Shown here: one piece after another, positions 51,937 to 54,165 of the stretch
Layout: each line of letters starts with the position of its first letter
Numbering within the stretch: the first letter of the stretch is position 1
NCBI GenBank assembly: GCA_948469315.1
Contig: CAOKLQ010000003.1
Span: 80,007 to 144,006, forward strand
Reading direction: 5' to 3'
DNA: 64,000 bases
From: an uncultured Clostridium sp.
GTDB lineage: Bacteria; Bacillota; Clostridia; TANB77; CAG-508
Translations under genes and position numbers: made by a program
Notes under the pieces: generated by a model
Told to the model about the DNA's origin: nothing
The model's database searches: none
Seen by the model: the letters and a program-made list of their open reading frames with translations, nothing else

Positions 51937-52833
51937 TTAATATATTTCACTAATCACATAATCTACAAATATTTCTGCCACATTCTTTCCACTCAATTCT
52001 TCTATATCACAAATAGCTGGATCTGCATTCACTTCACAAACTATTGGCTTATTTTCATTACTCATAAAAAAGTCAACCGAACAATAATCTAAATCTAATT
52101 CATTTGCTATCTTTTCTGCAATTTCCTTATATTCATTTGAAACTTCATAAGGCAATGCTTTTCCACCTAATGATATATTTGAGCGATAATCATTCTCATT
52201 TATTCTCATAAATGAACCTACTACTTTCTTCCCTGCAACTACAACTCTAATATCTTTTCCTACATTTTCTGGAATAAACTGTTGAAATAAATATTGTGAA
52301 CCACTTAATTTATTACATATATCATTAAATTCTTCTCTATTATTTATTTTGTATATATCTCTACCACCCTTACTATTACATTTTTTAGTTATAAAAGGAT
52401 ATTTTAAAGTTCTTTCAACATATTTCTTGAATTCTTCATTTATATTATCTTCTTTAATGTTTTCTACTCCAAAATTTATACTACCTAATATTGTATGTGG
52501 CAAGTTTATATTTTTATTTGACAATATAACATAAGTCATCATTTTATCATCACAGTTTTCTATCGCATTATAAGAGTTAAATGACCTTATTCCATTTTTG
52601 CAAAGTTCTTCATTTATATATTTATCTTTAACAAGTTGTATACAAAAATCATATTCTTTAACATCTATATTTACCTTTCCATTTATTACACTCGTATATT
52701 GTTCATCAACTTTTAATTTATCTATACTAATGCCTTTTTTGTTAAATTCTTCAATAAGTCTGTTGTATTGATATTGTTTTGCTTCATTTTGAAAACCTGG
52801 ATAAATTAATATTAATCCCTTTTTATTTTTCAT
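51937..52833 (-). CDS. RimK-type ATP-grasp ligase
   Basis: About 298 aa from MKNKKGLILIYPG after a GGAGGTG RBS; ATP-grasp motifs DIRVVVAGKKVVGSFMRINENDYRSNISLGGKA and CSVDFFMS..EVNADP. Confidence 0.7.
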   Translation of the reverse strand: MKNKKGLILIYPGFQNEAKQYQYNRLIEEFNKKGISIDKLKVDEQYTSVINGKVNIDVKEYDFCIQLVKDKYINEELCKNGIRSFNSYNAIENCDDKMMTYVILSNKNINLPHTILGSINFGVENIKEDNINEEFKKYVERTLKYPFITKKCNSKGGRDIYKINNREEFNDICNKLSGSQYLFQQFIPENVGKDIRVVVAGKKVVGSFMRINENDYRSNISLGGKALPYEVSNEYKEIAEKIANELDLDYCSVDFFMSNENKPIVCEVNADPAICDIEELSGKNVAEIFVDYVISEIY

Positions 52834-53347
52834 TCTTTTCCACCTCCCATCTTCTTTCTTCATCTATCTTTTCTTTTAGATATTGTGCAAAATAATTATA
52901 ATATTTGTCTTGTAATTCTTTTATTTTCCAGTCATATCCTGTAACAATTTTACGACAGTTTTTTGAACCACATGTACATTCAAATTTATAATCTTCATTA
53001 TCTATAAAAGCATAATCAGTTGTTAACTCTTCATCTTTGTTTATATCTCTTATAGCAACAAAAGTTATTTCTCCTCGTAATCCAACATTCGGATTACACG
53101 AATGATTTTCATACAATTTTATATCTTTTTCTTCCTCTTTATTAGTTGCTCCTAAAAAATAATCATCACTAATTGGAAAGTAACTATTTATTACTCCAGA
53201 TGAAAATATTTCATTTCTTTTTAATATATGTCCACCCTTAATAAATACTATTTCGTCTTTTTTTATTTTCTCTTTAGCAAAAACTCCTTTTCCATTTAAT
53301 CCGTTATCTCTTATTTCCGCTTTATTAGACATTATTGATTTAATCAT
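52823..53347 (-). CDS. SET-domain protein (putative protein-lysine methyltransferase)
   Basis: 174 aa; SET signatures NHSCNPN and ELTTDY plus a post-SET Cys cluster (FECTCGSKNCRK). Confidence 0.7.
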   Translation of the reverse strand: MIKSIMSNKAEIRDNGLNGKGVFAKEKIKKDEIVFIKGGHILKRNEIFSSGVINSYFPISDDYFLGATNKEEEKDIKLYENHSCNPNVGLRGEITFVAIRDINKDEELTTDYAFIDNEDYKFECTCGSKNCRKIVTGYDWKIKELQDKYYNYFAQYLKEKIDEERRWEVEKNEK

Positions 53348-53373
53348 ATTTTTCCTCCTTGCAGTAACTACTT

Positions 53374-53868
53374 TTATACTTTTAACAAGTATATATTTCT
53401 CAAATAATCTCCCAAATTAGTAGTTTTTATAATTTTTGCACCTGTATATTCTGTTGCTTTATTTGATGCAATGTTATCTGGATGAACTGTTATTACTGCA
53501 TATTCATAATCCATTTCTTTTAACTTTGATATTAGTATATCTTCTAAATGTTTCATAATTCCTTTATTCCTATATTCTTCTAATACTAAATAACCTCCAA
53601 ATTCAGCCATCTTATTATTGTTCATATTCAATATTTCTTTTATTTCTGCTGTATATGATTCATCCAAATATAATTGTGCTGTTCCTACTAATTTTTCTTC
53701 ATCCCAAGCACCATAAGTAATGATTTTATCTCCATTAAACATATCTTCTAACTCTTCTTCAGTAAACGGCATAAAAAATTCTTTTCTTTCTAAATTTTCT
53801 AATACTGTATCTATTAATTCTTTTAATTGTTGTTTTTCCTCTACTCTTATTTCTCTATAACTAATCAT
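53374..53868 (-). CDS. GNAT-family N-acetyltransferase
   Basis: 164 aa; acetyl-CoA binding motif A region (LVLEEYRNKGIMKHL). Confidence 0.7.
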   Translation of the reverse strand: MISYREIRVEEKQQLKELIDTVLENLERKEFFMPFTEEELEDMFNGDKIITYGAWDEEKLVGTAQLYLDESYTAEIKEILNMNNNKMAEFGGYLVLEEYRNKGIMKHLEDILISKLKEMDYEYAVITVHPDNIASNKATEYTGAKIIKTTNLGDYLRNIYLLKV

Positions 53869-53984
53869 ATTCTCTCCTCATTATAATATTTATGTCTAAT
53901 TTATATCACAACTTTACAATTTTTCATAGTGTTTTACCAATATTTACAAAACATATTTATCCTTACATTTGCTTAAGTGCCTTA

Positions 53985-54165
53985 AAATCTCCAATAGAAA
54001 TAATGTCAAGAGCGAGTGATAACGAGTTTATTTACTCTTGATATTATTTTTATTGGAGATTAAAATTGCTTTGCAAATGTTATAGGACGAATTTTCTCAT
54101 TTTTTCGTCCTATTAATTTTTATAAGACGAATTTCATTAAATTTTCGTCCTATAAAAAATAAGTA
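53985..54165. promoter_or_regulatory. three consecutive long hairpins/palindromes upstream of the GNAT operon and next to the rumA junction
   Basis: tccaatagaaataatgtcaagag..ctcttgatattatttttattgga; ataggacgaattttctcattttttcgtcctat; taagacgaatttcattaaattttcgtcctata. Confidence 0.45.

Follow-up and report, generated by a model that had tools for sequence, protein, structure and literature searches.

In elements that target rumA through a single serine integrase, one direct repeat (2-21 bp) lies in rumA and its partner inside the integrase gene, and the two genes have reciprocally exchanged their 3′ ends; re-insertion into rumA has been described for CTn5 of C. difficile (PMC4701971, PMC5704250). 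In Tn4451 and Tn4453, the serine recombinase TnpX is accompanied by a MobV relaxase and catP (PMC5704250). Here, a 64,000-nucleotide stretch of an uncultured Clostridium sp. (GenBank assembly GCA_948469315.1, contig CAOKLQ010000003.1, positions 80,007 to 144,006; G+C content ~26%), hereafter the window, was analyzed around an 8.1-kb element of the rumA-targeting kind. The element carries three head-to-tail minus-strand genes with a run of hairpins upstream, encoding a GNAT N-acetyltransferase of 164 amino acids (aa) (53374-53868), a SET-domain methyltransferase (174 aa; 52823-53347), and a RimK-family alpha-L-glutamate ligase (298 aa; 51937-52833). An initial annotation of the window had read this trio as a dedicated protein- or peptide-modifying unit reminiscent of clusters for ribosomally synthesized and posttranslationally modified peptides (RiPPs). 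The results below indicate that the three genes are probably separately mobile cargo, occupying cassettes 1 to 3 of one slot in a site-specific, rumA-inserted element, and not a RiPP cluster.

Protein families were called with Pfam and NCBIfam/TIGR models at curated bit cut-offs, and PADLOC, PHROGs, and Rfam were searched in addition. Related elements (siblings) were sought by scanning metagenome contigs with the window integrase as query; comparison loci and contigs are labeled L001 to L151. Genomic neighborhoods of SET genes were tallied over 21 contexts, SET motifs were aligned over 14 homologs, the hairpin region was aligned over nine elements, and hairpin z-scores compare folding energy with that of shuffled sequence.

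An integrative element in the 3′ end of rumA

A 24-bp direct repeat without mismatches (minus-strand sequence AGCCACGTGGAATGTGTTGCGGTG) bounds the element, which measures 8,095 bp from repeat start to repeat start; the window has two exact copies of it against none expected by chance. The right copy, an attachment (att) core at 54515-54538, falls in the 3′-terminal part of a rumA/rlmCD-type gene for a 23S rRNA (uracil-5)-methyltransferase (54491-55864, minus strand; TRAM and tRNA_U5-meth_tr domains; PF05958, 8.7e-28), where it supplies the SHVECVAV codons. The left copy (46420-46443), the exact same 24-mer, lies in the last codons of the gene for a large serine recombinase, the integrase (46412-48136, minus strand; 574 aa as integrated), whose Resolvase, Recombinase, and Zn_ribbon_recom domains match PF00239 (2e-33), PF07508 (5e-28), and PF13408 (1e-10). 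The earlier placement of the trio on recombinase-borne mobile DNA is thus upheld, with the repeat now giving its limits.

The last eight codons of rumA come from the element. Its frame presently reads ...SHVECVAV|LQLKEER*, and an alternative end past the left repeat, from 46419 downward, reads ...SHVECVAV|MGRKEEKTSNTNTLKDLEK. The integrase now ends in ...MCCG|DG, and it would continue as ...MCCG|ATIKRGKVILDF... for 43 residues more if the ends of the element were joined. This would-be C-terminal tail (MCCG|ATIKRGKVILDF) is encoded by an open reading frame (ORF) at 54384-54527 on the minus strand, which shares the reading frame of the integrase through the repeat, and excision or circularization would give it back to the enzyme. 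Homologs of the tail peptide, 62-76% identical, stand directly after rumA in L116, L119, L120, L121, L123, L129, L136, L146, and L151. Because recombination fell within the shared 24-bp sequence, rumA and the integrase gene have swapped their 3′ ends. By its sequence, the window element is a rumA-targeting serine-integrase integrative element; it has the integrase, the rumA site, and the repeat with exchanged gene ends of such elements, but the family models recognized no mobilization or conjugation module among its ORFs. The predicted attP junction is ...CCTATGTGTGAGCCACGTGGAATGTGTTGCGGTG|CTACAATTAAAAGAGG... and the predicted attB junction is ...TATACAAGCCACGTGGAATGTGTTGCGGTG|ATGGGTAGAAAAGAAG.... 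In L118 and L122, an integrase-core-tail arrangement was found that fits circles or tandem copies.

One backbone with different cargo

The metagenome scan returned many integrase copies at 87-94% identity and others more distant, many of them in records labeled human gut metagenome. Nine sibling contigs (L116, L120, L121, L123, L129, L135, L136, L140, and L146) repeat the gene order rumA, tail-peptide homolog, several kilobases of cargo, 61-aa ORF, and integrase, and their homologs of the 47-aa tail peptide are 43-76% identical. The direct repeats of siblings, 8-19 bp long, fall at the same rumA codons and the same integrase end as in the window. None of these nine contigs holds a match to the GNAT, SET, or RimK-family protein of the window.

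DNA alignment between the window and its siblings runs from inside rumA down to 53937, with the hairpins 78-88% identical, and begins again from 51774 onward. As homology to L116, L119, L121, L123, L129, and L146 is interrupted between 53937 and 51774, the trio fills a variable cargo slot of 2.16 kb (51775-53936, minus strand) behind a conserved leader. The leader or promoter region of the backbone (53869-53985, minus strand) reaches the first cargo gene's ribosome-binding site: similarity to L151 and L118 continues to 53866-53878, reaching ~10 nt from the GNAT start, although the first cargo gene is a different one (an SDR in L151). Promoter-like hexamers, recognized as consensus matches, lie at 53911-53880. 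The distal end of the slot is formed by a conserved backbone block (51676-51774) that is 87-93% identical in L116, L119, L121, L123, L129, and L151 and includes a terminator-like hairpin with a T-run (51729-51758).

The genes found in the slots of siblings are small, co-oriented, and tightly packed. Their products include an APH kinase, another GNAT, cytidine deaminase, peptide deformylase, and proteins of the Sel1, Ser_hydrolase, DUF5680, SnoaL, DUF2268, NUDIX, PNPOx, DUF6933, NTPase_I-T, cupin, Ppx/GppA, and SDR families. Gaps within the arrays (-37 to +64 nt) leave no room for attC-like sites, and a search for a recombination motif conserved between cassettes found nothing besides ribosome-binding sites.

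Separate occurrence of the three genes

The complete trio was seen solely in 100%-identical copies of the window element. Homologs of the ligase (63-87% identical) all occur without SET or a window-type GNAT: in L094 within an array of GNATs, HAD hydrolases, deformylase, and metallo-beta-lactamase-fold genes, in L095 beside PIN and PLD genes, and in L097 on a tyrosine-integrase island. GNAT homologs (61-91% identical) occur without SET; those at 61-63% are lone chromosomal genes, located upstream of mraZ in two of the three lineages examined, and the one at 91% has Mrr_N-like, methyltransferase, and Ham1 genes as neighbors. Relatives of the SET protein at 75-93% identity are abundant and were found in 19 species-level genomes (Clostridia, Bacilli, Erysipelotrichaceae, and related metagenome-assembled genomes), the next relatives being proteins of Bacteroidota and cyanobacteria at ≤40% identity. 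The phage collection contained no SET relative, and those in the plasmid collection were all below 60% identity (26-42% among the 12 matches listed).

Across the SET contexts, a window-type GNAT is adjacent in 6 of 21 and an SDR in six others, each in both orders, and a RimK-family gene adjoins SET only in the window's own element. Other SET neighbors are NUDIX, NT5C, PnuC, nucleoside deoxyribosyltransferase, zeta/AAA_33 kinase, class I methyltransferase, Exo_endo_phos, GyrI-like, and 2-hydroxyacid dehydrogenase genes. Taken over all three genes, the neighbors include kinases and deaminases, house-cleaning enzymes (NUDIX, Ham1, and NT5C), deformylase, hydrolases, and proteins of the GyrI type, as might be expected if all were drawn from one pool of accessory enzymes with modifying or detoxifying roles.

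The blocks of nucleotide homology end at, or a few bases from, start and stop codons. The GNAT gene alone is covered at 53871-53363 (94% identity, L109-L113), GNAT and SET together at 53871-52849 (86.5%, L014 and L015), SET alone at ~53348-52850 (many loci), and the ligase gene alone at 52837-51925 (86%, L094). Because homology ends at gene boundaries, the single genes behave as cassettes. The dedicated three-enzyme unit proposed initially does not agree with these data, since each gene occurs independently of the other two.

Predicted activities of the encoded enzymes

The enzyme classes assigned in the initial annotation (acetyltransferase, SET methyltransferase, and RimK-like ligase) were confirmed by Pfam and TIGR00768. 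Of the two spacings that it gave, the 26-nt gap between GNAT and SET stands, but the 11 nt between SET and the ligase gene are an overlap, with the ligase start codon inside the SET reading frame. This start is most likely the ATG at 52833, because of a GGAGG ribosome-binding site and homolog lengths of 297-303 aa. A weak hairpin lies on the 3′ side of the ligase gene, and no internal terminator was found within the trio.

The GNAT protein matches PF00583 (E = 1.4e-11; 45 bits against 20.7). Its AlphaFold2 model, with a mean predicted local distance difference test (pLDDT) score of 84, has the GNAT fold, and a structure search with it gave 797 PDB matches at E ≤ 0.001, the top 50 all being of the GNAT family; residues Y99, R100, N101, and G103 are invariant. 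By family, the protein would carry out acetyl-CoA-dependent N-acetylation.

The SET protein matches PF00856 (E = 4e-15; 56.5 bits against 22.4), and its GxG (LNGKG), NHSCNPN, EELTTDY, and post-SET CTCGSKNC motifs are invariant across the aligned homologs. Its best solved relative is the human MLL1/KMT2A SET domain (E = 1.4e-16), with both SET and post-SET regions aligning, and its C terminus adds a highly conserved helix, DWKIKELQDKYYxYFAQYLKxKI. Neither a signal peptide nor partner subunits were evident. With the active site and post-SET region intact, S-adenosylmethionine-dependent methylation of a lysine, another amine, or a thioether would be expected by family. The bacterial SET enzyme BurB methylates a free amino acid (PMC12542666), so that a small molecule is no less possible as substrate than a protein lysine; the alignment of BurB with the window protein is confined to the C-terminal third.

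The ligase matches PF08443 (E = 1e-31) and, over its full length, the RimK-family model TIGR00768 (174.1 bits against a cut-off of 143.4), placing it in that family. E. coli RimK was the top match in the PDB (8e-16; RimK entries 5zct and 4iwx). Scores with more specific models were lower than required: 69 bits with the S6-ligase equivalog NF007764 (cut-off 331), 112 bits with the LysX model (cut-off 276), and values likewise far too low with the equivalog models for MptN and CofF. An rpsF gene was not seen in the window. By family, the enzyme would add alpha-L-glutamate to a carboxylate at the expense of ATP.

PADLOC gave no match for the products of the trio or for two other element proteins, the MazF-like one and that of 689 aa, and no NCBIfam model matched the GNAT or the SET protein. 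The PHROGs search of the element proteins gave generic matches only.

Proposed organization of the element

The best explanation of these data is that the integrase has inserted the element, via the shared 24-bp sequence, near the end of the rumA/rlmCD-type gene. Starting from rumA, its backbone consists of a terminator-like hairpin, tandem 40-nt stem-loops (zero to three), a palindrome that is large and invariant, and a leader. Behind the leader, small enzyme genes are tightly packed in one orientation, in an array that differs per sibling and here comprises GNAT, SET, and RimK. In the model proposed here, the trio would be co-transcribed from the backbone without constituting a dedicated pathway, each enzyme acting on a substrate of its own, and the hairpins would insulate and drive the cargo slot.

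Several observations weigh against this reading. The 26-nt gap, the 11-nt overlap, and a single transcription unit would also be expected of a true pathway, and independence of the genes elsewhere leaves room for cooperation of the three enzymes here. The promoter assignment consists of consensus matches only, the 24-bp repeat exceeds the published range of 2-21 bp, no relaxase or transfer origin (oriT) was recognized in the element, and the family-library searches found no type IV secretion system family among its ORFs. An exact search for the att core in JGI metagenomes gave no match; because neither an empty rumA site nor an excised circle was recovered, we infer the mobility of the window copy. 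As regards function, the AlphaFold2 model of the SET protein, based on 14 close homologs, reached a pLDDT of 51, too poor for inspection of the substrate channel, and a Foldseek search with the GNAT model returned generic GNATs (ArsN/PAT, AAC(6′)-Im, Naa50/60, and FeeM; TM-score ~0.7) without a substrate hint.

The GNAT-SET pair and the case for a shared pathway

One alternative overlaps with the explanation favored here and sharpens its functional part: GNAT and SET might form a two-gene module acting on one amine target, in a conserved cellular protein (for example, a ribosomal, translation-factor, or nucleoid protein) or in a drug, and be selected as a mobile trait, with RimK as a hitch-hiker. 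This is possible, if only tentatively so. The pair occurs in both gene orders and with different GNATs, the one after SET in L005-L008 and L017 being 65% identical to that of the window and those of other pairs 87-89% identical. At L005:7520-12581, and likewise in L006, L007, L008, and L017, a 94-aa ORF is followed by genes for a serine recombinase (578 aa), SET, GNAT, and a Mob_Pre relaxase; SET and GNAT, which overlap by 4 nt in L005, are the sole cargo between the recombinase and relaxase genes of this Tn4451-like element. Its left junction (L005:7520) was found with three unrelated flanks, and its exact SET sequence has index entries in 60 of the collection's blocks. As the L005-type recombinase and the window integrase are just 26% identical, the pair rides unrelated backbones, and this recurrence argues for selection on the pair; since the pair recurs, GNAT and SET may share a target. 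The 75-93% identity of SET proteins across Firmicutes classes points to recent spread under selection. On the other side stand the limited frequency of the pairing, with a window-type GNAT beside SET in no more than 6 of the 21 contexts and an SDR in as many others, the GNATs at 61-91% identity that occur without SET, for example, upstream of mraZ, and the lack of an NCBIfam or PADLOC match for either protein. Adjacency could also result from co-transfer instead of co-function, and functional coupling is not proven, as both genes are also found apart.

Two observations on other loci of the pair and of SET were made. In L005 and L008, a second recombinase and Mob_Pre element lies ~3 kb downstream. 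In L009 (10001-12451) and L029, which belong to the core genome at this place, SET forms an overlapping three-gene unit with a FabG-like SDR and a PF06838 (YnbB-family) pyridoxal phosphate enzyme. YnbB of B. subtilis and the SDR YmfI are both involved in modifying Lys32 of EF-P with 5-aminopentanol (PMC5885033). The SET-adjacent SDR of L011 scored 161.7 bits with the YmfI model (cut-off 238), and for the SDR of L009, YmfI was outside the top hits; by this analogy, action of SET on a translation-factor lysine would be only a lead.

A broader generalization, that the rumA-element family is an integron-like expression platform of gut Clostridia, with a conserved, structured promoter or leader, which swaps gene-sized cassettes without attC and circulates a common pool of small modifying enzymes among Firmicutes, with the eukaryote-like SET and its GNAT as a selected mobile trait, is unlikely on the evidence at hand. 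If it were true, SET-GNAT would perhaps be a new resistance or tolerance determinant, modifying a conserved lysine (of the ribosome, EF-P, or a nucleoid protein) or a drug amine.

A single pathway on a single substrate appears improbable, in either of two versions taken jointly. One is ribosomal-protein-style modification, combining RimI/J/L acetylation, lysine methylation, and RimK C-terminal glutamylation; the other is the joining of an acetylated or methylated amino acid with glutamate, following the GNAT plus ATP-grasp logic of N-acetylglutaminylglutamine or N-acetylaspartylglutamate synthesis. The arrangement on one strand with tight spacing and no internal terminator speaks for a pathway, as do the RimK-family score of the ligase and E. 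coli RimK as its best solved relative, its weak match to the GNAT plus ATP-grasp enzyme model TIGR03103 (E = 0.004), and the activity of BurB on a free amino acid. Yet the trio is confined to identical copies of one element, homologs of each gene occur without the other two, the same slot holds unrelated enzymes in siblings, homology blocks are gene-sized, and the ligase falls far below the S6-ligase equivalog cut-off.

The hairpin region and the remaining alternatives

The spacer at 53869-54514 (646 nt) is more strongly structured than shuffled sequence (z = -6.65) and holds four discrete hairpins with z-scores of about -5 to -7 each. The three long hairpins noted initially are thus real and beyond chance, and a fourth, with a U-run, had been missed. 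This fourth stem-loop (54157-54192, within a terminator-like insulator at 54152-54196 on the minus strand; -17.7 kcal/mol, z = -5.3) is followed by TTATTTTTT. Hairpin and U-run are kept in all nine aligned elements, and because the stem relies on G-U pairs, it forms on the coding (minus) strand only. It fits an intrinsic terminator that would insulate the cargo from rumA/integrase read-through.

Next to it, two tandem 40-nt hairpin units of the form TATAGGACGAA-N12-TTCGTCCTATA occupy 54075-54154 (minus strand; z about -5 each), and siblings have zero, two, or three copies. Their stems show compensatory change at 4 of 11 pairs, with 90.9% of cells paired compared to 82.7% after shuffling (none of 500 shuffles as high; 25-50% in slid registers), figures to be read with the units being mutually related and the register having been chosen from the sequence itself. 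The large palindrome at 53986-54061 has 27-nt arms that are 93% complementary and a 22-nt loop (-27.7 kcal/mol, z = -7.4); among siblings its arms are nearly invariant and its loop varies, and -35-like hexamers (TTGACA/TTGATA) occur on both strands. The 40-nt units are followed by a T-run on neither strand, and the palindrome likewise has no U-run. At a permissive threshold, an Rfam search of 45-58 kb found no match in the hairpin region and returned only a transfer-messenger RNA (tmRNA) and a tRNA.

As judged from their retention among siblings, the hairpins are backbone structures of the element and most probably not regulators specific to the GNAT-SET-RimK genes. For the 40-nt units and the palindrome, roles in RNA stability, processing, DNA-level control, or transfer are possible. 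The initial annotation had considered attenuators or protein-binding sites, and a version in which the hairpins and their MKFVL/MRKFVL mini-ORFs act as leader-peptide attenuators or operators of this operon is very improbable. The mini-ORFs are present in the window, with an in-frame ATG after AGGA in both loops, and the hairpins do lie upstream of the operon; but siblings with other cargo keep the hairpins while their loops vary and lack the ATG, the unit number changes, and the units sit 207-286 nt upstream of the GNAT start codon. Covarying stems with changing arms, moreover, indicate a nucleic-acid structure and not a fixed operator or coding sequence.

Two short-read contigs of one sample break at the hairpins, L093 ending at 54204 and L001 starting at 53966, and L002, from another sample, spans them. 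The break at 53966-54204 is probably an assembly effect of the palindromes or of copy-number variation in the 40-nt units.

The proposed kinship with graspetide (microviridin-like) RiPP clusters, which would here require an overlooked precursor, merits practically no weight: an ATP-grasp ligase with a GNAT resembles MvdC/D plus MvdB superficially, but the ligase scores 22.5 bits with the MvdC model TIGR04185 (cut-off 425) and 26.6 bits with the SAV_5884 maturase model TIGR04187 (cut-off 350) while passing the RimK-family model, its homologs elsewhere have no RiPP context, and the search of both flanks for precursor ORFs found only hydrophobic low-complexity ORFs of 20-49 aa, none of them Thr/Ser/Asp/Glu-rich or conserved.

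Other genes of the element and its surroundings

Along the minus strand of the element, the structured spacer is followed by GNAT, SET, and RimK, then by a MazF/PemK-like gene in the opposite orientation, the gene for a 689-aa protein, a 61-aa ORF, and the integrase. The PemK/MazF-like protein (51057-51599, plus strand; 180 aa with an N-terminal extension; PF02452, 2.5e-11) is 87-89% identical in L116 and L119. The 689-aa Cys-rich protein (48890-50959, minus strand) varies among siblings and had no Pfam, NCBIfam, PADLOC, or PHROG match. No antitoxin gene adjoins the MazF/PemK-like gene, which is divergent from that of the Cys-rich protein (48890-51599), and the two may be an unrecognized toxin or defense pair. 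The 61-aa ORF just upstream of the integrase (48204-48389, minus strand) is 82-97% identical in most siblings and has no family match.

A second, degraded, related element adjoins the first at 39676-46419. It includes a truncated serine recombinase (272 aa) that is 69% identical to the N-terminal half of the intact integrase, a homolog of the 61-aa ORF (40573-40731), and noncoding blocks at 40.8-41.3 kb that match those at 48.4-48.9 kb. Its further products are a 478-aa protein with no assigned function, a GH2 glycosidase, and a RhuM/Fic protein, the last one matching the PADLOC candidate defense system PDC-S23 (E = 2e-124). Tandem accretion at rumA was also seen in the siblings L116, L118, L122, and L136.

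A conserved noncoding block of ~115-170 nt lies ~600-700 nt upstream of the recombinase genes (48751-48875 and 41155-41268) and recurs, at 74-85% identity, at 35654-35738 and in the otherwise unrelated RimK-homolog locus L094 (581-748); the 48.75-kb copy, the only one inside the 45-58 kb Rfam scan, was unmatched there. Long palindromes with ~20-nt loops are present in noncoding DNA of the elements at 48580-48639 and 41365-41429. Hairpins of the type that closes the cargo arrays of siblings (GCCGTTTT...TTCGTAAAT and ATTTACGA...AACGGCAA; 37880-38174) flank an aldehyde dehydrogenase gene (38159-39526), and for this reason element-derived DNA may extend left beyond the truncated recombinase.

On the other side, ~0.9 kb beyond rumA, are a tmRNA gene (56771-57127, minus strand; Rfam, 156 bits) and a tRNA gene (57269-57341, plus strand), with a 175-aa ORF of no matched family (55965-56492) between rumA and these genes. 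Integration at the 3′ end of a tmRNA gene is a classic arrangement; it was considered for this element and ruled out, as the repeats put the junction in rumA.

Implications

What had been a speculative RiPP-like operon becomes a precisely delimited element of a known type, and a false lead is removed. A small nonconjugative branch of the rumA-targeting elements, common in human-gut metagenomes, carries a promoter-proximal array of interchangeable small enzyme genes, with homology breaks at the gene boundaries. A stand-alone, MLL-like SET protein that is 75-93% identical over several gut Firmicutes classes resides on at least two unrelated serine-recombinase elements, often together with one particular GNAT; the pair would represent a new mobile trait of the gut microbiome if it modifies a drug or some conserved target in the cell. 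The literature searched held nothing relevant on the trio or on SET proteins in clostridial mobile elements, and both the variable gene-by-gene cargo array and the widespread SET-GNAT pair look undescribed there.

Comparison with known systems

The closest counterparts are the streptococcal rumA-targeting integrative elements, both conjugative (ICEs) and mobilizable (IMEs), with a single serine integrase, as well as CTn5 of C. difficile, which share with the window element a large serine integrase, insertion in the rumA 3′ end, repeats placed in rumA and the integrase gene, exchange of C termini, and tandem accretion (PMC4701971, PMC5704250). Unlike these, the window element spans only 8.1 kb, has neither a conjugation module nor a recognizable relaxase, is bounded by a 24-bp repeat, resides in a spore-forming clostridial gut organism of ~26% G+C, and carries an array of small enzymes in place of resistance or conjugation cargo. 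The element of L005-L008 and L017 resembles Tn4451/Tn4453 in its large serine recombinase, short cargo, and Mob_Pre relaxase and differs from them in that SET and GNAT take the place of chloramphenicol acetyltransferase; the window element has no recognizable relaxase. SCCmec offers a further parallel as a serine-recombinase element at the 3′ end of the rRNA methyltransferase gene rlmH, with repeats of ~15-20 bp, variable cargo, and tandem accumulation, but it uses the Ccr recombinase family and another target gene, is much larger, and has a defined resistance cargo.

Among the cargo proteins, the ligase scores above the cut-off of the RimK-LysX family that includes E. coli RimK, with no S6, LysW, or cofactor genes nearby. 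The SET protein shares the GxG, NHSC, ELxxDY, and CxCx4C post-SET motifs with eukaryotic MLL/SET1 proteins, from which it differs as a stand-alone protein of ~170 aa with an extra C-terminal helix. Integrons, finally, depart from the window element in having an IntI tyrosine recombinase and attC-like spacers instead of a serine recombinase, but their arrays are alike in presenting a conserved promoter or leader platform followed by co-oriented, exchangeable, gene-sized units that differ from one element to another.

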